The notes below the pieces were generated by a model that was not told the origin of the DNA, did not search any database, and was given only the letters and a program-made list of their open reading frames with translations. The translations under genes were made by a program, and so were the position numbers. Positions 49,496-64,000 of a stretch of DNA of 64,000 nt are shown here, one piece after another (position 1 is the first letter of the stretch; each line of letters begins with the position of its first letter). Source of the DNA: Escherichia coli (GTDB lineage: Bacteria; Pseudomonadota; Gammaproteobacteria; Enterobacterales; Enterobacteriaceae); NCBI RefSeq assembly GCF_002854065.1, contig NZ_CP024147.1; one strand, 5' to 3'.

Positions 49496-50520
49496 ACCGA
49501 CTCCTGATTCAAATGTATGATGGTATTCATTGAACAGAACAATGGATCCCCCACCGTTGCTGACCGCAAAACATTTACGCGATTAATACTGCGCGTAATA
49601 TAATTAAAAATCCAGCATTCTCAATCCATTACGAAATAAGATGGCATTACGGAATAGCCAGACTTTCTCGTGTTAACGTCCGACAAAATGCGTCATTGAC
49701 AGCGGTTTCTGTGGATTGACACATTTCATTCAGATAATGAATTAATGCTACTGCCGGAACAACCAGCAAACGGGCATTGTGTTCTGAAATCCAGGCTATT
49801 GATTCAACGTCAGCGACAGATCTGCGCTGTAAAAGAACTTGTAAAACAACGTAATAGAATTATCCGGAATGGTGGCGACTATGCACTAGAACACCACAAT
49901 TTCGCTCTCTCGGTAAGGCACTGTCACAGCATTCAACAGAATGTGACTTGCCAGATTTATTAGCGCCACCAGATGTTTAACCGGGTAACCACGACCCAGT
50001 CGGGGATATATTCCATCTTCTCGCTGACATCATCAAGAATAAAAAGGTTTATCACACTCAGAGCAACGTTCTTCAGCAGGCGGGATAATTCTTCAACATT
50101 TAGAAGATGTGTTATTAAAGGCATACAAACTGGACGTATTGTATTTTCTTTTGGTGGTTGACCTAAGGTAGCAGTTTATCCTGATGCGCTGAGATTTCTG
50201 TAATATCTACGTCAACATTCTCCTCGAATAGAAAATGCAGCCCCGGCAAGTGATTCACATTTTTTAACAAAACGTTGTTAGCGTGCCATTTTCAGAAGCT
50301 CTCCAAGAAAGCGAATTCTTTTCTCAAATTCTGCATTCTCAGACACAGCTTTCTACTCCATGGTAATGGCCCAAATACGAAGTTGCTCAGGATCATTAGT
50401 GGTGCTGAGAAGTTAAATAACCATGCGGAGTACCACTCGTCATCACGTATTTATATATCATGAAGCTATTGTTGTGTTTTGTACATCAGTAGATATATTC
50501 TGATATACTCCTTTTGCTAG

Positions 50521-51715
<1,195 letters not shown>

Positions 51716-51819
51716 CTAATTTCGATAGGTTCTCAGATGAGAATGATGACGGTGATACACAGATAAGAATCAATGAGCAATGAGGGTTGCCGGGCAACCC
51801 TCATTGAATAAAACAGGAA

Positions 51820-52149
51820 TTACTTCGCTTCGCCGTTTTTCATTTCGCCCATAGCTTTCAGCTTTTTGGAGATATCGCGGCGTTCTTTGGAGAGCTCGGC
51901 ATTTTTGATGATGTAATCGTCAACGCGATCTTCATAGTCACCTTTCATGCTGGCGATGATGCCCTGGATTGCTTCAACGCTCATCCCGGGCTTGATGTAA
52001 TCGCTCAGGTTGTCCAGCAACAGGACGCGCTTCTGGTTGTCACGGATCTTTTTCTCAACGTCCTGAATTTCACGTTGCAGTTTGTTCTTACGACGGAACA
52101 GACGAACAAATTCCAGTACGTCCTGGAATGAAGGCTTGGTAGTTTCCAT
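51820..52149 (-). CDS. yeeX: UPF0265 / DUF496 protein YeeX
   Basis: 109 aa from [30 protein letters not shown]…. Confidence 0.85.
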
Positions 52150-52320
52150 TTTTATACCCCTGATAATGTGAGAGTCGGATTCGTTTAAGCAACCGCTATT
52201 CGTTAGGGCCAACATTACTCATAGCTGCCGCAGATGACAATGCTTTTATCCCTTTTCACTATCATACCCTTTATCCTTGCTGAATCGAAGCAGCAGCAAG
52301 ATGATTCTGAAGTTCAGGAA

Positions 52321-53379
52321 TTATTTGCGCAAGGCCCGGCAAATCAGATTCGATAGCAACTCAAGCTGATGTGCCGTTTCCATGTTCAGCCACACATAAC
52401 CATAGATTGGTGTTTCCACAACCTTCAGGTCATGGTGGTTATTCAGCAACTGACGCAGCTCTTCCACAGCATCGTTCAATTTTTCCGTATTGGCAAAAAC
52501 CGGCTGCGGATTACCTTCGTACAGCGCATGAACAAGGCTCAGCAGTATTTGCTGCATCATGTGCTGGGTATCACGAAGTTTTTGCGCGTTCAATAACACG
52601 AAATGGCTGGGGCGCGTGGCCCAGTATGCATTGATTTGCAACTCCAGCATACAAACCAGATTGCGGTTAATGGTCTGGATACCTTCATATATCGATTTTG
52701 GAATTCGAGTTTCTTTGCTGGCGGGCGCAATCAGCCCACGCATTTTCACGGCATCGGTCAGGAGTTTTTGTAGATGGCTTTCCAGACGTGGGCGTTCGAG
52801 TAAGTTTGGTGAGAATGCAGATTGATAAACCCGATTATACTCGGTCAGACTTTTCGCCAGTTGAATGCGCCAGTGGATGAACGCCCGTTGTGGCCAGATA
52901 CCGGTAAACAACATTGCCAGTAAAGAGCCGAGGATCACATCGCCGCTTCGCCATAACGCCGTATCAATTTCACCTGTCGGGGAACCCACAACAATTGCCA
53001 GCGTCACCCCAATCAATAATCCTTGATACGGTTTCTTGCCCAGTGCCAGCCAACCGCAAAGAAACATAGCCGCCGCGCACCAGACTAACATCAGCGGTAA
53101 CGAAATTAACTCCAGTTGCAGAGCGATAAGACCTAAAATCGAACCCAACACCGTACCGCCAATACGTTCGAAGGCGCGAGGAACAACGTTACCCCAGAAC
53201 GAGATTGGCCCCATAATCACCACCATGGTGACCAGCGGCCAGGTGCTTTCAGGGATAGTAAACAGGCGGATAATGAGAAAAGTGAGCAGGAATGCCAGCG
53301 CGACCCGAGTACCATGCACAATGCGGTAATGGCGGTATACCCGGATTTCAAACGGGCTTAATGACTTATCGGCACGCAC
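52321..53379 (-). CDS. yeeA: Inner membrane protein YeeA (FUSC-like putative transporter)
   Basis: 352 aa polytopic membrane ORF recognised as YeeA. Confidence 0.85.
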   Translation of the reverse strand: MRADKSLSPFEIRVYRHYRIVHGTRVALAFLLTFLIIRLFTIPESTWPLVTMVVIMGPISFWGNVVPRAFERIGGTVLGSILGLIALQLELISLPLMLVWCAAAMFLCGWLALGKKPYQGLLIGVTLAIVVGSPTGEIDTALWRSGDVILGSLLAMLFTGIWPQRAFIHWRIQLAKSLTEYNRVYQSAFSPNLLERPRLESHLQKLLTDAVKMRGLIAPASKETRIPKSIYEGIQTINRNLVCMLELQINAYWATRPSHFVLLNAQKLRDTQHMMQQILLSLVHALYEGNPQPVFANTEKLNDAVEELRQLLNNHHDLKVVETPIYGYVWLNMETAHQLELLSNLICRALRK

Positions 53380-53576
53380 GCAAAAACTCCGTAATGAAGA
53401 TTAAAAGCGCTCATAACTCATCTGTCGGCCAGAAGGCGCGCCTCTGAATTATCCGACGGACAAACCGGGAACAGTGTAATTTCCCGGCAGGAGCGAAAAA
53501 ATTGAAAGGCGCATCTTACTCTTTTCGCTTTCAAAAAAAGAGTGGTCATCGCGTTAACACACCGCCCTGAGATGAA

Positions 53577-54041
53577 TTAGTGATGTTTTGGCTGCACCGC
53601 AACATACATTTCGATATCCCAGTACCCATCTTCCGCGCCATTGTTCAAATAAACCTCGAAGCAGGGCTTTGGTAACATTTCATAAGCACTGTCCTGCAAG
53701 AGGCTATTAAAGAACTGATACCAGGGTTTAGCAAAATCATCACCGACTACACGAGCCACCGCCACCGCATACTGACCACCTGAAATTTCTGTCAGAATGA
53801 CGCCCTCACTGTTTTCGGGAAGCGTAAAGTTATTCGGTACCGTCACAACGGTGTCGCAGCGTAATTTTTCGGCGGGTCTTTCATCTGGATTGTCGTAATA
53901 GACAGCAACCCACTCAATATTTTTGTTATCTACCCACATCATCAACTGCTCAAAGCCTTTCTTTACCGTCTGTTCCCACGGGCCAACGAGATGGAAACCT
54001 GCAACGGTACGTTTCTCTTCCTGCTTAATCTCGTAGTTCAT
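53577..54041 (-). CDS. sbmC: DNA gyrase inhibitor SbmC (GyrI)
   Basis: 154 aa ORF ([24 protein letters not shown]…) recognised as SbmC. Confidence 0.9.
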
Positions 54042-54159
54042 GACGCCTCCATTAACACTGTTTTTATATACAGTATAGTTGCAAAATTAAAACCACAAGG
54101 AATGAGTGTTGATTATGCGAGCAGACTCGCACTCCTGCCAGTCTGCTGCAAAAGAAAGG

Positions 54160-55332
54160 TCAGGCCTTATGGTGGAAATAATCACTCAGGCGGGAAAACA
54201 TGCCGCCTTCCCCGACAGATTCCAGGGTAACCAGCGGCCAGTGCGCCACCTGTTTATCACGGTCGTAAAGTTCAATTTCCCCTACCCGCTGATGGGCGCT
54301 AATTGGCGCGGTGAGCTCTTTACCATCAAGGGTATATTTGGCTTTGATATGTGGAATTTCGGCTTTCGGTAGCACCATCCAGAACTCTTGTTCCGTTCCC
54401 AGGTCGATATTTTCTTTATCGCCATACCAGATGCGTTCCGTTCCGACCTTTTTCCCACGGTGCAAAATTTGCACCGTAGTAAAGTTTTGTTGCCCCCAAC
54501 GCAGTAATTTTCTTGCCTCTTCCTCACGACCTTTTGCACTGTCAGCCCCCATTACCACTGCAATGAGACGACGCTGCCCATCTACAGCCGAAGCAATGAG
54601 ATTAAACCCGGCACCAGAAGTATGACCCGTTTTCAGGCCGTCAACATTCATGGTTTTATCCCACAACAACCCGTTACGGTTTTGCTGGGTGATACCGTTC
54701 CAGGTGAGACTTTTCTCACTGTACATATGATAAAACTCGGGCTCGCCGTGGATGATAGCGCGAGAAAGCACAGCTAAATCATAAGCCGAGCTATGCTGGC
54801 CAGGTGCATCCAGACCATGCACTGTTTCAAAATGCGTATCCTTGAGATGCAGCTTCTCGGCATAGTTGTTCATCATTTCAACAAACTGCCGTTGCCCACC
54901 GGCAATATAGTCAGCCAGAGCAACACAAGCGTCATTTCCGGAATCCACAATTAAACCACGGCTTAAATCACGTACCGATACGCGATCGCCCTCTTTCAAA
55001 AACATCAGTGAAGAACCGACAAACACCGGATTATCTTTCGCCCACGCATCGCGCCCCACGGTGACAATATCGTCTGGCGTAATGCGATGACTATCGATAG
55101 CGCGATCCACGACATAACCCGTCATCAGCTTTGTCAGGCTGGCGGGATTGCGCTGTTGATGCTCATTACCCGCGGTGAGGATCTGTCCGGTGGTGTAATC
55201 CATCAGTACCCAGGACCCGGCTTGAATCTGTGGAGGCTGAGGTGAAAAAGGAATGTTTTCCGCCGCAAAACCAGACGATAAGTTAAAAACGAACAAAGAA
55301 GCAGCAATAATAAGACGGCGTTTCAACAGCAA
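54160..55332 (-). CDS. dacD: D-alanyl-D-alanine carboxypeptidase DacD (PBP6b)
   Basis: 390 aa with signal peptide and S11 peptidase motifs (SxxK: ASLTK; SGN). Confidence 0.9.
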   Translation of the reverse strand: MLLKRRLIIAASLFVFNLSSGFAAENIPFSPQPPQIQAGSWVLMDYTTGQILTAGNEHQQRNPASLTKLMTGYVVDRAIDSHRITPDDIVTVGRDAWAKDNPVFVGSSLMFLKEGDRVSVRDLSRGLIVDSGNDACVALADYIAGGQRQFVEMMNNYAEKLHLKDTHFETVHGLDAPGQHSSAYDLAVLSRAIIHGEPEFYHMYSEKSLTWNGITQQNRNGLLWDKTMNVDGLKTGHTSGAGFNLIASAVDGQRRLIAVVMGADSAKGREEEARKLLRWGQQNFTTVQILHRGKKVGTERIWYGDKENIDLGTEQEFWMVLPKAEIPHIKAKYTLDGKELTAPISAHQRVGEIELYDRDKQVAHWPLVTLESVGEGGMFSRLSDYFHHKA

Positions 55333-56045
55333 ACCCTCAGGAGTTTCAAATAGCTGTTCTTTTTACGGAAATACTTATGAACTGGCTGGAATAAAGTGCA
55401 AGAAAATGTGACTACCCTAGCATTTTTATCTGACATGATCTGTTGCCACTCGCTGCCAAATTGTGGCGCTAAAGCTGATTAGCACGGTGATATTTGATAC
55501 TCTGGCAGACAGCAGAAATAACGGATTTAACCTAATGATGAATGACGGTAAGCAACAATCTACCTTTTTGTTTCACGATTACGCGCAACACCCCTGAGAA
55601 CCGCCATGAATAAGGGTTTCATGATTTGTGATTTTAGTTTGGTACGCAATTTGGTACACAACACAATTTTCACTTCAGCGGGTAGTCATCAAACTCACCA
55701 TAACGAGCATCGTTGATGATGTATGTGATCACCACAAATATCACATCTGGACTAGTTCCGTCTTCATGCGCAGGTATCTGTTCACGCCTCCCTTTCTGCA
55801 AATCCTAAAGATGAGATTTTGGGGTTTTGGGATATCTTTTTATCCTCAGTTCTCTATCCATTCTACAAAGCAGTAATGAACCATCACTATGTGATAGTGA
55901 GGCATCCGCTACATTAAGCGCAGAGAAATGATGCAGTGGTGGTCGGACTGGATTGATGAAAAGGTGTGATCGGTTAGCGCAAGACGAATCACCACCCTCG
56001 CCAGTTTTGAGTTGTTTTGCGCTAATTTTTTACCCCACCTCTGCC

Positions 56046-56076
56046 CCATCAAAAGAAAACCCGCTCTAGCGGGTTC
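56046..56076 (-). terminator. Terminator hairpin immediately downstream of the acyltransferase gene
   Basis: On the minus strand, AACCCGCTAGAGCGGGTT hairpin followed by TTCTTTTG, right after the stop at 56082. Confidence 0.5.
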
Positions 56077-56081
56077 ATGTC

Positions 56082-57152
56082 TCAGGCCTCTTTGCCCTTC
56101 TCTATCGCTGAGGGCTTGTCAGGAAGCAATGCGCTTATACGTCCCTTAAGGTACTTGTACATTCTGACGTCGATGAATGCTGCGTATAAATACGCTAGCA
56201 CTATCGAGACAGCAATCATTTTTACCGCCCCCATAAATGGATCTCCCTCAACAATACCGGTAATCATCACAGGGAAATGGAGAAGGTACAGAGGGAAGCT
56301 GATAAACCCTAAAAACTGGACTGGTGCAGAGTAAAGGAACCGTTTAACCAGGGACTCATCATTCATGTAATCGACAGTTAGCAGGGGAAGAAATGCCACC
56401 ATGTAGAAATAATCCATCCTGTTGGTATGCGAAGGTTGAGCATAGAGCCCGGCAAAGCATACAAACAGACACATAGCCAAAAAAACATTCTTTTGAGGTA
56501 GTTTAGTGAAACTCTCGTACCATTTTAATTTTATGATCGAGTACATACCCGATCCCATCAAAAGACATGATGATGCAAAAACAAAATTGTACATCCCGAA
56601 AAGCTCTGGACTACCGAGCCCTCTGGCAGAAACAACAGCCAGATAAATAAATGCCAAAATAGAAATACATAACCTTGAAAGCGGCCCCATTCTCAAGAAC
56701 AGAACTGGAATCAACATGGACGCCCAAAATTCTATGCTGACACTCCACGAAGGTTCATTTATCAAATTGAATGATAATGGGGTAGACCCATGTATAAATG
56801 CTAAATTCGCTACCCATGTCCTGATACTAAATACGTAATCACCTGGCACATAACCACCATTAAGGCTATTTACGTAGTAAATGATTACCATTATCACTGA
56901 TGATATAAAGGTAAGAGGCCACAGTCTTGCCAGTCTATTCAAAAAATATGACGGGATAGACGCCCCATTTCTTACTGAGTGGGTAAGCACAAATCCCGAT
57001 ATGATGAAAAAATATGCAACAGCCAAGTGAGGGCCGTTGAATGGCCCATCATTTTTCCAACCAGTAACAGCATTGATGGCGTGATTTAGGAGCACTGCGC
57101 ATGCAAAAAGGCCGCGCAAACCATCAACAGCATAGAAGCGTTTAATTTCCAT
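56082..57152 (-). CDS. Acyltransferase family 3 integral membrane protein (OafA/Oac-like; candidate surface-polysaccharide O-acetyltransferase)
   Basis: 356 aa, about 10 transmembrane segments, N-terminal AVDGLRG…H motif typical of acyltransferase_3; lies downstream of tail-fibre genes where phage conversion genes commonly sit. Confidence 0.7.
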   Translation of the reverse strand: MEIKRFYAVDGLRGLFACAVLLNHAINAVTGWKNDGPFNGPHLAVAYFFIISGFVLTHSVRNGASIPSYFLNRLARLWPLTFISSVIMVIIYYVNSLNGGYVPGDYVFSIRTWVANLAFIHGSTPLSFNLINEPSWSVSIEFWASMLIPVLFLRMGPLSRLCISILAFIYLAVVSARGLGSPELFGMYNFVFASSCLLMGSGMYSIIKLKWYESFTKLPQKNVFLAMCLFVCFAGLYAQPSHTNRMDYFYMVAFLPLLTVDYMNDESLVKRFLYSAPVQFLGFISFPLYLLHFPVMITGIVEGDPFMGAVKMIAVSIVLAYLYAAFIDVRMYKYLKGRISALLPDKPSAIEKGKEA

Positions 57153-57271
57153 AACAATTTATTTAAAAAAAGAAAAATTATACTAGAAATATATCATCAA
57201 CATCTATGCCATTGATGATTAAGTGATGGTTGTCACGGTTTTGTGTTTCTGGCTGGAATGCTGGCAGTGCT

Positions 57272-57460
57272 TTACTCGCTTGACTCAGGATCGGTGAATA
57301 CTCCATCTTCATAAATCCATCCAATTCTGCATGGTATTCCGTCTATTTTAACAACCTGATAATCATCAAAAATATGCCCCTCACCATCCCATATAACAAT
57401 ATTTACAACTATTCCATCTGTAATTAATGCATATCTCATGCAAACTCCTCCACAAGACAA
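57272..57460 (-). CDS. Hypothetical small protein downstream of the tail fibre (possible tail-fibre-associated protein)
   Basis: 62 aa ORF overlapping the 3' end of the tail-fibre gene by 25 bp; no recognisable family. Confidence 0.3.
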
Positions 57461-58362
57461 ATACCATCAGCACCTTCACCACCATAAAAACGCGTGGAGA
57501 AGACCTGCGTGTCATATGCGCCAGCGCCGCCACCGCCAGGGACTAATGCTTTCGCAATTCTCGGTGAATATACAGTACACTGCCCCGCTCTTCGGCTGCC
57601 ACCCCAAAAGCTTGAACCGCCGTACCCATTAAGGAACCTAGTATTATTTTGGCCATCTCCGCCATCTCCGCCGGCTAGATTTACATCACCACCAGACCCG
57701 GCAACTCCAACGCCGCCTGATGCATATACAGTGGAAGCAGTGGACGGGTTTCCGCCTGTGGCAACCATCCCACTAAATGTTGAGTTACCGCCTTTTGTTG
57801 CCTCAGTTCCGCCAGCACCGATAACCACGGCAAAGTTTGTGATGTCAGCAATATTGAACCATTTGATACCTGTAGCGCCTGCAGCCCCCCCAGCACCGGA
57901 AAAGTTATCGGTTGGGGAACCACTATTAAAAGCGCCACCTCCGCCACCACCCCCTCCCGTTAGAGTTACTTTGATGCGCTTCGTCAGCGGGTTTAGCGTT
58001 ACTGTTTTTGATGAGGTGATCCACTGCTCGGCAATCTTCCTACCTACGTATCCGTTGGTATCTCCCAAATCAAGGTTTGCGAGAGCCGTTTTCACCGTGC
58101 CATCCGATTTGATATCGCCAAACGGATTCTTGCGGCTTAACAGCAGAGCACGAAGCGCGGTAAGCAACTGGTCGTGCCGCGCCTTCTCCAGACTGGCACC
58201 AGATGCCTCAACAACGCTACAAAGTTCTTCCTGCAACATGTCAAAGTAGTCATCATCCAGATCGGTGGCAGGCGTGCCAGTCTGGGGGTTACCACGGGTA
58301 AAACCGTTCTTACCCGCGCCGAACTTATCCTTCTGCGCGGTTTTCGTGTCTATACGATGCAT
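57436..58362 (-). CDS. Phage tail fibre protein (Gly-rich)
   Basis: 308 aa; conserved phage-fibre-like N-terminus then Gly-rich repeats including GGGGGGGG, at the fibre position of the module. Confidence 0.65.
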
Positions 58363-58365
58363 GGA

Positions 58366-58950
58366 TTACTCCGGATATTTAAAAATTACGTAGGTATGCG
58401 ACGGGCAGAGTTTGTTAAGCACACACTCGACAACGGTGTCGCCCCAGATACGCAGTGCGGAATCACAGGGATCGCCACATGTCATCCAGGTGGTGTTGGT
58501 GGTGGTTGGCATGTTGACATGCCAGTAATACCGCCATTCCGGCGCATTCACCGCGTCAGTACAGGCCGATGAGCAGGTGAACGTGCTTTTGTCGTATCGC
58601 GTGATGGTGGCATCTGGTCTGCCCAGGGCAGCAAGCTGTGCAAGATAAAAATCCTCGTTGATGCCGCCCGCCAGGTTAACCTTCGCATCCAGCCGTTGCT
58701 GACGCTGGCGAAGGGTCTGCGTTCCCGCCGGAATACATTCATCCGGCAGACCGCACAGACGCTCCCAGCGGTTTATCAGTTCAGTGGTGGTGCGCGGATC
58801 CAGCTCCCGCATCAGGGCATCCGCACGCTGATGAACACGGGTTAATGACGGTGCCGCACCGGCAATCGCCGGATCGCTGGCTGACCACGCCGGACCGGGC
58901 GGCAACAGTGCCGATAACAGGCGGATGTAATCATCGTTTGTCACGTCCAT
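58366..58950 (-). CDS. Phage tail protein, YmfQ / Mu gp48-like (DUF2313)
   Basis: 194 aa ([22 protein letters not shown]…), positioned between the baseplate J gene and the fibre gene. Confidence 0.6.
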
Positions 58951-59999
58951 GAAATCGTCCCCAGTACCGCCAGTTCGTTTTTCGCAATGGAGATATTGTC
59001 CACCGGTGCAAGCAACTGATGGCTGTATTCCCCGTTCGCACCGGAAATCGCCTCACTGATACGCGACACCTTCAGTTCTCCCTGCGGATAACCATCACGC
59101 AGCAGGAACGAACGCAACTCCGCGGTGATGGCAGCCCGTATTTCCGGTGTATCCGGCGTCACGCGGATATGAAAATCCACCGTATGTGCCACCGGCCTGA
59201 ACACATACAAGTCAGAACCTGCCACCGGGGCCAGTGGCCCGATATGTTGTATTGCCGCCGTTTCCGTTGATTCTTCCGGAATGGGATTAATCAGGTCACT
59301 GCTGGCAATCATCACACCGACAGTTCCCGTTCCCATCCAGTGACGGTATGTCCATGCGCGGGTAATGCCGGGCACTTCTTTAGCCCAGACGACATAGTCC
59401 CCGTCAGCCCCGCCCTGCGGCGTCCAGTAATACCGCTCAATGACGCGGGCGCGCCACGTTTCCAGATCTTCAGTATCGAATCCGCCAGTCAGGGTATCTG
59501 CAACACCGGAAGACGGCAGACCATTCACCGGCGTGACTAGGATTAATGCCGTACCGTCGTCAGCGTTACCGACCGCGCCTGCATTTGAGCAAGTGATCGG
59601 CACACGCAGGACACCACCGGAGCTGGTTGCATCGGCAGTTGCCGTGTACTGAACCAGGTCATCGCGCTGAATCACGCTCCCGGCAGTCACCTTCAGGCCA
59701 TCGCTGACACCTTCCCAGCGCATATACCCGCTGGCAGCCGTGGCCCCCTTGCGCGGACACCGTTTCATCGCAGCATGTCGCGCCAGCCAGGACTCATCGC
59801 ACAGGTCAGGCAGCATATTCATTGCCAGATAATCGATGTACCCGTAGACCGTATGCAGCGCCGCCGCATACACCTTTGCCCGCACGTCTTCATCCATGCG
59901 CCGGAGCGTGTTGCTGACGTCCAGCCTGGCGAATAAATCGTTACGGAGCATACTGATATTTTCTGCCAGCGTCGGGCGCTGAAATTCACTGTCCGCCAT
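58941..59999 (-). CDS. Baseplate J-like protein (Mu gp47-like)
   Basis: 352 aa with baseplate_J family features; overlaps neighbouring genes. Confidence 0.7.
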
Positions 60000-60414
60000 G
60001 CGTTATCGCACTCCACAGATCATCAAAAGAAATCATTACCGGTCCGTCACGACGCCAGAGAGTGATACTGTTACCCAGTTCATTAATCCCGGTACGGCGG
60101 ATATCCAGATCAATACGGGACACCACGCCGTCATCAATCATCCATTGCAGGCATTCGCGGATATATCCCCTTACCGTCTGCACCAGCTGATTGGTCAGTT
60201 TGCTGCGCTGAAGCAGCCACAGTCGGGAGCCGTAACGGTCATTCTGTACCGCAGGCCAGGTATCCCCCCACCATCCCATCGGGACGTCGGCGTTGTCATC
60301 AGGCTCCGCCCGCCGCCAGGTAAACAGGGAAATCACCACGGCGCGGGTCAGCGGATCCAGCGGTGCGCTGGCGCAGGTGCGTTTACCGTTCACCGTCAGC
60401 CACAGTTCCATCAT
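59986..60414 (-). CDS. Phage GP46-family baseplate protein (Mu gp46-like)
   Basis: 142 aa, position and size as for Mu gp46. Confidence 0.55.
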   Translation of the reverse strand: MMELWLTVNGKRTCASAPLDPLTRAVVISLFTWRRAEPDDNADVPMGWWGDTWPAVQNDRYGSRLWLLQRSKLTNQLVQTVRGYIRECLQWMIDDGVVSRIDLDIRRTGINELGNSITLWRRDGPVMISFDDLWSAITHGGQ

Positions 60415-60959
60415 GCCTCCATCGCTTTATCAGGTTTGTCGGTGTTACTGCCCTGACCGTTCTCTCTGTGACGATGCCCGTTATAGGCAAGCCGCATCGC
60501 TGACATGGTGGTGCCGCCGGAGTCGCACAGGTCTTTCACCTGTCCGGTCACTTCCAGGTCCATTTCAAAACGTGCTTTAGGTGAATTGCGAAACGTGATC
60601 GTTTTACCTGCACCGTCCACCACGATCCCCTCCCGGGTCAGCGTCACGGACTGCCCCTGATCGTCATAGACAGCCACCTCACCCGTCTGCAGCCCTTTCA
60701 GGCGGTAGCGCCGGTCCGACACCGTAACAACCACCGCATGAGAACGGTCGCCATCCGGAAACAACACCACCGCTTCCGCACCGCTGTTTGCCCTTGCGGT
60801 AAAACCGTAGGGTTCAAGATGTTCAACCCCGGCTTTGGGTTCACCGGCAATCAGGGACACATCCACGGTCTGACATTTCGTGGCGGCACTGATGCTTTTC
60901 ACCACGGCCCGCCCAATCAGGCCGAGGAGTTGTCGCTGCATGGCTTCAATCGTCCTCAT
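60411..60959 (-). CDS. Baseplate assembly protein V / spike (Mu gp45-like)
   Basis: 182 aa; gpV-type OB-fold N-terminus; 4-bp overlap with the downstream gene. Confidence 0.6.
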   Translation of the reverse strand: MRTIEAMQRQLLGLIGRAVVKSISAATKCQTVDVSLIAGEPKAGVEHLEPYGFTARANSGAEAVVLFPDGDRSHAVVVTVSDRRYRLKGLQTGEVAVYDDQGQSVTLTREGIVVDGAGKTITFRNSPKARFEMDLEVTGQVKDLCDSGGTTMSAMRLAYNGHRHRENGQGSNTDKPDKAMEA

Positions 60960-62038
60960 CAGAACGGGTCCTCCTGTACTCTGGCTTTTTTCTTTTTCCG
61001 CGCGCCGGGGGCTTCGGGTTCAGGCAGATAAGCATCAGGTGGGCCGACACGGATTTCCGTCAGGGTGCCGTTCTGGTCCTGAGTAAACGTGACTTCCGAA
61101 ACAAGCAGTTCGGTATTGTCGAAACCACAGACCGGATCAAAGACAATCACCCGCTGGTTGGGCTGCCACAGCGTACCGTTACACTGTCGCCAGCCCTGCA
61201 CCACATAGGTGGTTTCATCCGTCCGCGCCGCCCGTTGTCTGGCTTCAAAGTCCGCACGGGCAATACAGCCTGCCCCCGTAGCCTGCCCTGTCTGCCTGAT
61301 ATACATCGGACGGTAACGGGCAATAAATGCGTCCTCTGTGCGGGCCCGCAGCGCGGTGGTGGTGGCCTCACCGAAATCATCGTCGTTTCCGGCACGCTGC
61401 CCCGCCACCTGGTAAACAGAAAACCGCTCCCGGATACTCTTCTCCGTATCGCAGGAAAGGATGTTTTCCCCGAGTACCAGCGCAGTATGTGCCCGAGTTG
61501 AGCCAATACCGCCAATCACCAGCCTGCCGTGCGGGTCGTCGTAAGCCAGTGCCTGCTGCTGACCGAGTATTTTGTTGATTACCTCAATCACCGTTTCACC
61601 GTGATCAGGCTGAACATCAGGAATAACACCCGACGGCGCACCGCTGTTCACCACCTCAATGCCGAAAGGCGCAGCAAGCGCCTGCGCAATCTGCACCAGC
61701 GAGCGTCCGTTAAACTGTGTCGGTTCGGCTGCACAGTCAATCAGGTCAGCCGTCAGACTACGTCCGACAATACCGGTGCTGACCGAACGGGAATCGTAAC
61801 GAACGGGCGTCGCCTCCACCCAGCCGGTGATCACCAGCTCATCACCAATCAGCACTTCCACTTTTGAACCGTTTTTAATGCGCGGCTGAAGCGTGGTGAT
61901 ACCCTCATCTCCCGGCCACTGGCGGGTGATCTCCACACTGAAATCCCGCGCCAGCCGTTCAATACCGGCACCGATGCGCACCGATGTCCAGCCATTCCAC
62001 TCCCGGCCATTTACCCGTAGCGTGACATTGTCGTTCAT
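60959..62038 (-). CDS. Mu P-like tail/baseplate hub protein (Mu gp44-like)
   Basis: 359 aa (MNDNVTLRVNGREWNGW…), position and length as for Mu P. Confidence 0.6.
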   Translation of the reverse strand: MNDNVTLRVNGREWNGWTSVRIGAGIERLARDFSVEITRQWPGDEGITTLQPRIKNGSKVEVLIGDELVITGWVEATPVRYDSRSVSTGIVGRSLTADLIDCAAEPTQFNGRSLVQIAQALAAPFGIEVVNSGAPSGVIPDVQPDHGETVIEVINKILGQQQALAYDDPHGRLVIGGIGSTRAHTALVLGENILSCDTEKSIRERFSVYQVAGQRAGNDDDFGEATTTALRARTEDAFIARYRPMYIRQTGQATGAGCIARADFEARQRAARTDETTYVVQGWRQCNGTLWQPNQRVIVFDPVCGFDNTELLVSEVTFTQDQNGTLTEIRVGPPDAYLPEPEAPGARKKKKARVQEDPF

Positions 62039-63375
62039 TGCACTGGCACCTTCAGAGGGATCACCGGCACAAAGCCGGGATGCGTAATGGCATTACGCCG
62101 GATAATGTCCGCGTCACGCGCCGCGTTATCAAACCAGGTCGCCGCCAGCACCAGCGCGGGTAAAACCTCATCCGGTGTGCGCTGAATGATCCGTGCAGAC
62201 TGTTCAAGGCGCGTGTTGATATCCGCATTCAGATCTGCTTTCACCCGGCGCAGCGCCAGAAACAGCGCATCACTGGTTGTACGGGACAACTCCTTATCAA
62301 TTGCCGTATTCAGTGTGTCGCGAATGTCAGTCAGTTCTTCCCACGTCGGCAGGTCAACCGTGTTTTTCACCGCCGGTGCATTGTTCAGTGCCGGATGCGT
62401 GACGGAAGGCCAGCCAGTGCTCTGCGCGGGTGTTGTTGCCTGCCCCACTGCGGCATTCTGCATCACCGCGGAAGTTGTTGGCGCAGGCAATCGGGTGACG
62501 GCATACGCCGCTTCGCTGATTGCGGTCGTACGAAGGGTGCTGGCAACCACGTTACGCTGCTGCGTCGCCGTGGCGGTGGTTTTACTGTCCGTTTTCCAGA
62601 CGCCGCGCGGTTGCAGATCGCTGCCGAGGCTGACACCGGAAAGCGTTTTGATCATGGTGACCAGGTCGCTGGCGTTACCATAAAGGCGTTTCCCGGTACG
62701 CCACATTTTCTGCACCTGCTCAACGAAATTTTTGCCTGACGATGGCGGCGGCAGAAGTACCGAGATATCCCCCTGCAACAGCCTGGCGGCATCCGATACG
62801 GCAGAATCCACCACTTTCATCGCATCAGAAACATACCCCAGCATTATGCTGGCATTACCGATAACGTCGTTCTGCACGAAATCCGCAACACCATCGATAC
62901 TGAAACCGCTGAAGCTGTCACTGATGCAGTCATCCAGTGCAGAACAGGATGACATCAGCGTCTGCGCCGTCGCCGCACCTGATGTGGGGTAAGAGAGTTC
63001 TCCTGCTTCGACAAACTTCAGGTCAAAGCGGACAATACGCCCTTCACTTTTCGATGTGCTGACCCGAACTTCCCCGTCAACACAGACTTTCAGCTCACCA
63101 TATGTCGGGTGGACAAGCGTGCCTGGACCGGGTTTATTCAGCGCGTCAATCAGGCGATCGCGCTGGTCAAAGCAGTCATCTCCCACCACATAAGCTGTGA
63201 TGGACGGGCGGAAAGTGATTTTCCCCAGGTCTTCGGTATAGGGTTTGTCGCGGTTTGGGTATTCATGCGTTTCAACCCGACGTCCTACCGGGGCCCCTTC
63301 ATCTTCTACCTTGAACGGAACGCCGCGAAACGACGCTTCAACCAGTCTGTCTTTCCACGCCATTGTCTGCACCAA
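62035..63375 (-). CDS. DNA circulation protein N-like tail protein (Mu gp43-like)
   Basis: About 440 aa with conserved N-terminal …ASFRGVPFKVE…; start is ATG at 63363 or upstream TTG/GTG at 63375/63372. Confidence 0.6.
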   Translation of the reverse strand: MVQTMAWKDRLVEASFRGVPFKVEDEGAPVGRRVETHEYPNRDKPYTEDLGKITFRPSITAYVVGDDCFDQRDRLIDALNKPGPGTLVHPTYGELKVCVDGEVRVSTSKSEGRIVRFDLKFVEAGELSYPTSGAATAQTLMSSCSALDDCISDSFSGFSIDGVADFVQNDVIGNASIMLGYVSDAMKVVDSAVSDAARLLQGDISVLLPPPSSGKNFVEQVQKMWRTGKRLYGNASDLVTMIKTLSGVSLGSDLQPRGVWKTDSKTTATATQQRNVVASTLRTTAISEAAYAVTRLPAPTTSAVMQNAAVGQATTPAQSTGWPSVTHPALNNAPAVKNTVDLPTWEELTDIRDTLNTAIDKELSRTTSDALFLALRRVKADLNADINTRLEQSARIIQRTPDEVLPALVLAATWFDNAARDADIIRRNAITHPGFVPVIPLKVPVQ

Positions 63376-63465
63376 TATGATTTGTTATAAGCTACTCTGT
63401 TTCAGACGCTTCTTTCGAAGCGCCAGAGAACATTTACCTTTAAGGAGAGGTATAAATGGAAATGT

Positions 63466-63523
63466 TTTTGCCGTTAATACTGGGTTTGTTGCTAGCCGTT
63501 TTCATAGGACGGTGGGCTTGGTA
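63466..63523 (+). pseudogene. 5' fragment of a plus-strand gene interrupted by IS1 (hydrophobic N-terminus MEMFLPLILGLLLAVFIGRWAW)
   Basis: Strong SD AAGGAGAGG 6 nt upstream of the ATG at 63466; the frame runs into the IS1 end where TAA is created at the junction. Confidence 0.35.
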
Positions 63524-64000
63524 ATGACTCCAACTTATTGATAGTGTTTTATGTTCAGATAATGCCCGATGACTTTGTCATGCAGCTCCACCGATTTTGA
63601 GAACGACAGCGACTTCCGTCCCAGCCGTGCCAGGTGCTGCCTCAGATTCAGGTTATGCCGCTCAATTCGCTGCGTATATCGCTTGCTGATTACGTGCAGC
63701 TTTCCCTTCAGGCGGGATTCATACAGCGGCCAGCCATCCGTCATCCATATCACCACGTCAAAGGGTGACAGCAGGCTCATAAGACGCCCCAGCGTCGCCA
63801 TAGTGCGTTCACCGAATACGTGCGCAACAACCGTCTTCCGGAGCCTGTCATACGCATAAAACAGCCAGCGCTGGCGCGATTTAGCCCCGACATAGCCCCA
63901 CTGTTCGTCCATTTCCGCGCAGACGATGACGTCACTGCCCGGCTGTATGCGCGAGGTTACCGACTGCGGCCTGAGTTTTTTAAGTGACGTAAAATCGTGT
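63521..64000 (-). mobile_element. IS1 insertion sequence (partial; continues past the window end), same orientation as the IS1 at 40635
   Basis: Starts with GGTAATGACTCCAACTTATTGAT and is near-identical to 40635-41114 over the visible 480 bp; encodes the InsB' C-terminal portion (63535-63912 ORF). Confidence 0.9.

Follow-up and report, generated by a model that had tools for sequence, protein, structure and literature searches.

A prophage attachment junction of the 2851/Sf101 type at the start of sbcB, beside dacD, in Escherichia coli

The start of sbcB is an already documented insertion site of temperate phages. The attP of Sf101, a serotype-converting phage of Shigella flexneri, and of the Stx2c phage 2851 has been published as 5'-CGTAATCGTGAAA-3' (PMC4159516), and a second paper gives sbcB as a recognised Stx-prophage site in O157 (PMC8309913). 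Records of individual phages mark the same place, as the core carries the label 'prophage attachment site (type 2851)' in the annotation of mEp234, and the same 13 bp are described as a 'duplication due to insertion' in that of the Stx2 phage 1717. Here, we present an analysis of a short interval within a 64,000-nucleotide stretch of E. coli DNA (the window, to which all coordinates refer unless another sequence is named), and identify this interval as the junction of a temperate phage inserted at the start of sbcB, at a site of the 2851/Sf101 type. Since the 2851-type sbcB site is documented, the junction is an ordinary one, though real, and adds no new biology in itself.

The interval, 55333-56081, is bordered on its left by the dacD ORF (54160-55332, minus strand), and the first real gene to its right is a membrane acyltransferase gene that starts at 56082, likewise on the minus strand. 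GC content is about 0.41 in the interval, lower than the value of about 0.50 in dacD. An earlier note on this DNA had described these roughly 750 bp as lacking convincing genes, and the list of open reading frames agrees, as it contains short ORFs and no intact gene here; the 82-aa ORF mentioned in that note is present at 55628-55876 and is judged spurious below. The interval does, however, hold gene-derived pieces, namely the start of sbcB, a humD pseudogene and the 3' end of an intS-type gene.

When the segment 55200-56200 was used as a megablast query against 5,426 complete E. coli genomes, nearly all of them were matched, with K-12-type genomes aligning only to query positions 1-384, i.e. 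up to window position 55583, and with dacD and sbcB as the features beneath the alignment. The dacD-sbcB intergenic region (55333-55534) is core sequence that includes the native upstream region of sbcB; nearly all of the 5,426 genomes match it, and in a three-way alignment it differs from W3110 at two adjacent positions only (55425-55426). The sbcB coding sequence, which starts at position 1836 of the W3110 segment (L002), begins at window position 55535, and apart from the two mismatches the window equals W3110 through ATGATGAATGACGGTAAGCAACAATCTACCTTTTTGTTTCACGATTACG, beyond which divergence is complete. The breakpoint between core genome and foreign DNA is at 55583/55584, because identity to W3110 ends there and divergence is total after it. 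The expectation that K-12-like sequence would end somewhere inside the interval was correct, since the interval does not align continuously with the core reference: 55333-55583 aligns and the remainder does not. The comparison with the K-12 dacD-sbcB intergenic region that had been proposed for locating the breakpoint did find the exact position, but this position is not intergenic and sits 49 bases inside the sbcB coding sequence. With this, the left end of the prophage is fixed to the base, and sbcB is split by the element rather than merely adjoining it. What remains is an orphaned 5' fragment of 16 codons and one base (55535-55583, plus strand), which now runs into phage DNA to give a 20-aa ORF, MMNDGKQQSTFLFHDYAQHP, with its stop codon at 55595-55597.

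The last 13 bases common to the window and K-12, TTTCACGATTACG (55571-55583), form the attachment core, or crossover region. On the plus strand they are the exact reverse complement of the published attP sequence, and they coincide with the annotated site in the phage records, so that the attachment site that the earlier note thought might be retained is indeed there. A direct repeat shared with the distal end of the element had also been suggested; a search of the whole 64-kb window for a second copy of the core found none, leaving the single exact copy at the junction, but the repeat is seen in two related genomes, CUWW06 and strain 100416. Three features of a 2851-type junction were found together at this position: the identity of the core, its location in the 5' part of sbcB with chromosome on one side only, and the homology of the other side to the arms of phage attP sites.

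That other side is a phage attachment arm extending from 55584 to approximately 55960. It is 93.5-99.2% identical to mEp234, Sf101, 2851, 1717, Stx2a_F349 and three E. coli prophages, and 93.5-98.4% identical if only the free phages (mEp234, Sf101, 2851, 1717 and F349) are considered. Of the 5,426 complete E. coli genomes, 482 (about 9%) carry at least 80% of the arm, and the module is common to otherwise unrelated lambdoid phages, with mEp234 and other phages parting from the window after about 55957-55966. In mEp234 this arm is on the side tail fibre side of the core and int is on the opposite side. With int across the core there and the side tail fibre gene beyond the arm, the junction in the window is the integrase-distal, tail-gene-side one, which corresponds to attR in the lambda convention. 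The arm is without a living gene. A promoter scan gave fewer sites than shuffled sequences and none in the phage arm, and an Rfam scan of 55200-56300 returned only a match to rsmX at 19 bits, below the gathering score of 56, which we treated as chance.

A search for direct repeats found two tandem 12-nt repeats in the arm, TTTGGTACGCAA and TTTGGTACACAA (55638-55661, plus strand), both carrying TTTGGTACRCAA. In mEp234, a region of 5.4 kb around attP has five copies of TGGTACRC, none of them more than 205 bp from the core; three are beside int and two in the arm of the type seen in the window. For this clustering 0.30 copies were expected by chance, and none of 200 shuffles reached five. The same three copies beside int are present at the far junction of CUWW06, and the cognate 392-aa integrase has a PF13356 arm-binding domain. 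The TTTGGTACRCAA repeats are likely to represent arm-type integrase sites, putatively bound by the N-terminal domain of the integrase.

A gene of the O-antigen-modification type begins 120 bases past the arm, which places such a gene directly beside the attachment site. It encodes a 356-aa membrane acyltransferase (56082-57152, minus strand), an O-acetyltransferase-like cargo protein at the end of the prophage that matches PF01757 (Acyl_transf_3, E 5e-23) and phrog_3333 ('O-acetyltransferase', E 2e-34), and it is followed, five bases after its stop codon, by an intrinsic terminator with an 8-pair GC-rich stem and a T-rich tail (56057-56076, minus strand). Its GC content is about 0.40, compared to about 0.57 for the adjacent tail genes. 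Similarity to OacB of Sf101 is weak (28% over 102 aa), and with the opposite orientation of the two genes this led us to dismiss an identification of the cargo gene as oacB. No relative with more than 30% amino-acid identity was found among 50,697 phage records. A version of the gene with 89% nucleotide identity occurs in 2 of the 5,426 complete E. coli genomes, and the exact protein is indexed in 64 blocks of an assembly collection of draft genomes and metagenomes, adjoining dacD in all eight places among the matches listed. Similarity at the family level suggests that the enzyme may acetylate the O antigen. Of modest value is the link between this rare O-acetyltransferase-like cargo and an SfV-like phage with sbcB as its integration site.

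The prophage continues with tail-fibre and Mu-like baseplate genes of an SfV-like phage (57436-63375, minus strand), recognised by PHROG matches and by identity to phages. A 308-aa ORF matches tail-fibre PHROGs, and the baseplate and tail genes of SfV, SfI, SfII and SfIV match 58061-63363 with 97% identity. Further, the window is colinear with CUWW06 from 50000 to 63519 at 98.5% identity. From 63520 to the end of the window at 64000 the prophage is interrupted by an IS1 (99% identical to IS1 insA regions), which sits just past the DNA-circularisation gene (62035-63375, minus strand). Relatives without the IS1 run on into phage genes, several draft contigs with the identical acyltransferase break off at the IS1 point, 63520, and in strain 100416 an IS1-bounded deletion comprises everything between the acyltransferase and a partial int, and with it almost the whole prophage.

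On the chromosomal side, an IS5 transposase gene (50667-51647, minus strand) lies to the left of tmaR/yeeX, and at the same place in CUWW06. In the draft genome L015 a gat-type PTS operon lies beyond this IS5, which suggests IS5-mediated rearrangement in some relatives; that the window shares the L015 junction was considered and rejected, as the window diverges from L015 to the left of 50521 and follows CUWW06. The sbmC ORF (53577-54041, minus strand) encodes 154 aa here and in L018 and 157 aa in CUWW06, strain 100416 and several draft contigs, a difference that may be one of start-codon choice only.

The integrase, the second copy of the core and the rest of sbcB lie beyond the window, which ends in the IS1, and their pairing with this junction is seen in relatives only. 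In CUWW06 the prophage is complete, with a length of about 38 kb, and ends with a 2851-type integrase and the same core; its sbcB starts with the phage-supplied ATGACAGACGCAGATAAACAACCTACCTTCCTCTTTCACGATTACG and continues as host sequence. Both CUWW06 and strain 100416 combine this left junction with a 2851-type integrase, the same core at the other end and a rebuilt sbcB of 474 aa. That form of SbcB occurs in 223 indexed blocks of the assembly collection and has an integrase gene directly upstream in nine of ten places among the matches listed, in a 392-aa form with PF13356 or in a 298-aa form, the tenth place being strain 100416 with its partial int. As observed in CUWW06 (L006, 17893-19317), lysogeny swaps the first 16 SbcB codons, MMNDGKQQSTFLFHDY, for 15 phage-encoded codons, MTDADKQPTFLFHDY, and places sbcB under phage-borne upstream sequence.

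We hold with high confidence that the junction was formed by integration of a phage into the start of sbcB in the manner of 2851, mEp234 and Sf101, with strand exchange within the 13-bp core, and we count against this reading that neither the integrase nor the second core nor the remainder of sbcB falls inside the window, their pairing with the junction being seen in relatives only. In such an integration, the integrase would have recombined the phage attP site-specifically with the 13 bp that the start of sbcB has in common with it, the strands being exchanged within TTTCACGATTACG at 55571-55583. Left of the core, the chromosome is unaltered, with dacD, the intergenic region, the upstream region of sbcB and its 16 orphaned codons, and right of the core follow the phage arm, the cargo acyltransferase and the SfV-like tail genes. 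Apart from the tandem repeats, the arm is passenger debris, comprising a dead humD, the last 17 codons of an intS-type gene and a terminator hairpin. At the other junction, beyond the window, the phage would provide sbcB with a new start, MTDADKQPTFLFHDY, and would thus leave it intact; by bringing a replacement for the promoter-proximal start of its target, the phage would allow the target gene to survive. Beyond 64000 a second TTTCACGATTACG is expected, followed by sbcB in the form GAAACCTTTGGC. Transcription from the native sbcB upstream region would, we infer, encounter the hairpin on the plus strand first and the acyltransferase gene, which is convergent, only afterwards.

The first relic in the arm is the C-terminal two-thirds of humD, a phage umuD-like gene of the S24 peptidases, lying on the minus strand at about 55670-55921. 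This minus-strand frame matches the NCBIfam profile NF051876 (HumD) with E 4.1e-27 over profile positions 46-128 of 129, includes an internal stop, and scores 94.7, less than the cut-off of 120. The relic shares 53% amino-acid identity with the intact 129-aa S24 peptidase of GN05064, and in other genomes PGAP marks a pseudogene of the S24/HumD type at this arm. The internal stop is common to every relative in which the frame is kept, and four relatives have an extra frameshift. A full-length HumD/UmuD-like ORF of about 129 aa is not present, as the N-terminal part is absent, and the piece is an old, dead gene fragment. The homology surfaced only with the NCBIfam profile; a Pfam search of the humD frame gave no match, and neither did a tblastn search of the interval with E. 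coli UmuD. A 47-aa ORF at 55909-56052 (minus strand) was considered as the missing HumD N-terminus and rejected, being without a family match; read on the plus strand, this stretch is a homologue of the intS 3' end and the hairpin downstream of it.

Antisense to the humD relic lies the longest ORF of the interval, the 82-aa ORF with a GTG start (55628-55876, plus strand), which could be taken as a functional small protein, a phage accessory gene annotated as orf17 in Sf101. Its frame is open in the window and in four of the eight relatives compared, and the annotations of Sf101 and of some E. coli genomes list it as a hypothetical protein. Pfam and PHROG searches of the ORF gave no match to any family, however, the scan found no promoter-like site for it, a 1-bp deletion at 55837 shifts its frame near the C-terminal end in four of nine homologous arms, and substitutions across the compared arms are mostly non-synonymous, while the HumD homology on the opposite strand (E 4e-27) explains how a long antisense ORF could survive by chance. 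That the interval encodes a functional small protein is very improbable; the ORF is spurious, because it is antisense to the humD relic and frameshifted in four of nine arms, and with it a spurious 82-aa gene call is removed.

Two further alternatives concern the junction as a whole. IS1 and IS5 copies are near in the window and the arm is pieced together from fragments of genes, which might suggest that the breakpoint is the scar of a rearrangement that was not site-specific, such as an IS-mediated deletion or illegitimate recombination; but there is no IS end at the breakpoint, the boundary equals the published 13-bp att core to the base, and hundreds of genomes and the attP sites of free phages show this same junction. 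These observations already contradict a rearrangement scar, to which we assign the lowest probability of all the alternatives, one that is close to negligible. The other alternative is compatible with the same origin by integration and concerns what became of the prophage: the junction could now be a fossil, the prophage being defective or truncated by IS1, its integrase end lost or separated, and excision no longer occurring. With an IS1 at 63520, inside the tail module, this copy of the prophage is possibly truncated and its junction possibly unable to recombine any longer, and the same direction is indicated by the draft contigs with the identical acyltransferase that break at the IS1 point, by strain 100416, where IS1 removed everything between the acyltransferase and the partial int, and by the Sf101 paper, in which sbcB prophages in Shigella genomes are reported as disrupted by IS elements (PMC4159516). 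On the other hand, the core is intact, as are both arm repeats, with 98-99% identity to their counterparts in the viable phage mEp234, insertion of an IS1 does not by itself entail loss of the far end, and CUWW06 holds a complete, colinear 38-kb prophage. We regard the chances for and against a fossil junction as evenly balanced.

Integration at the sbcB core remains the preferred reading of how the junction arose, and the right part of the arm carries traces of what preceded it. The second relic (55907-55960, plus strand) comprises the last 17 codons of an IntS-type integrase gene, KRREMMQWWSDWIDEKV, with the stop codon, and was recognised by alignment to the intS ends of L009 and PK13; many E. 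coli genomes have annotated intS genes whose 3' end matches it over 46-50 bp at about 96% identity. A complete IntS-type integrase CDS is not present, and these 17 codons and the downstream hairpin are all that is left. The hairpin, found by folding and as inverted repeat I1, is long, ends in a run of six T and is terminator-like (55972-56033, plus strand), with a minimum free energy of -26.5 kcal/mol and a z-score of -6.6 for 55972-56027. In PK13, the homologue of window 55974-56051 begins at most 5 bases past the end of an intact intS CDS, which lies beside tRNA-Arg (argW), and among the homologues of the hairpin the stem is conserved and the loop variable. The hairpin is predicted from its sequence to be the terminator of an older IntS-type integrase gene. 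The phages mEp234, 2851, 1717 and Sf101 keep the 17-codon relic without the hairpin and diverge from the window at about 55957-55966.

The same hairpin and T-run recur at boundaries of prophage modules (window 55972-56033; L021 2001-2078; L020 2501-2579), and in GN05064 the hairpin adjoins the intact humD-like S24 peptidase at the ydfJ-side prophage end. The hairpin may have two roles, those of a terminator and of a recombination linker. Together, the intS relic and the hairpin fit a past swap of integration modules. As a tentative proposal, to which we give somewhat less than even chances, the interval would be the scar of such a swap, in which an SfV-like, O-antigen-modifying phage exchanged an IntS-type module (of the kind that integrates at argW in PK13) for a 2851-type, sbcB-targeting one, the swap point falling within the final 17 codons of the former integrase gene; the integrase 3' end with its hairpin may be a recurrent linker at which lambdoid phages trade integration modules and retain the neighbouring cargo gene. 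The arm records earlier module exchanges in the form of its humD and intS relics, which is again of modest value.

Compared to known systems, the locus has the same 13-bp core and the same target in the 5' part of sbcB as the sbcB phages 2851, 1717, mEp234 and HK544, and its arm is 93-98% identical to the integrase-distal arm of 2851-type phages. The phage bodies differ, as the window has an SfV-like myovirus tail and the acyltransferase, whereas 2851-type phages have Stx-phage or HK97-like late genes, and the window keeps about 90 bases more of the sequence downstream of intS, including the hairpin, than these phages do. With Sf101, which carries oacB and integrates at sbcB, the window shares the core, the arm and the position of an O-acyltransferase-family gene directly beside the attachment arm; Sf101, however, is a P22/Sf6-like podovirus, in contrast to the SfV-like tail module of the window, and its OacB is encoded on the opposite strand and has about 28% identity to the window enzyme over 102 residues. 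The O-antigen-modifying phages SfV, SfI, SfII and SfIV have baseplate and tail genes that are 97% identical to those in the window, and they likewise have a gene of the O-antigen-modification type at the prophage end, but unlike this family the window keeps only the last 17 IntS-type codons and is integrated at sbcB. Finally, the attP of lambda and that of the type found here both feature a short core, clustered direct repeats on two arms and an integrase with an N-terminal arm-binding domain, and they differ in the sequence of the repeats, their spacing and the target.
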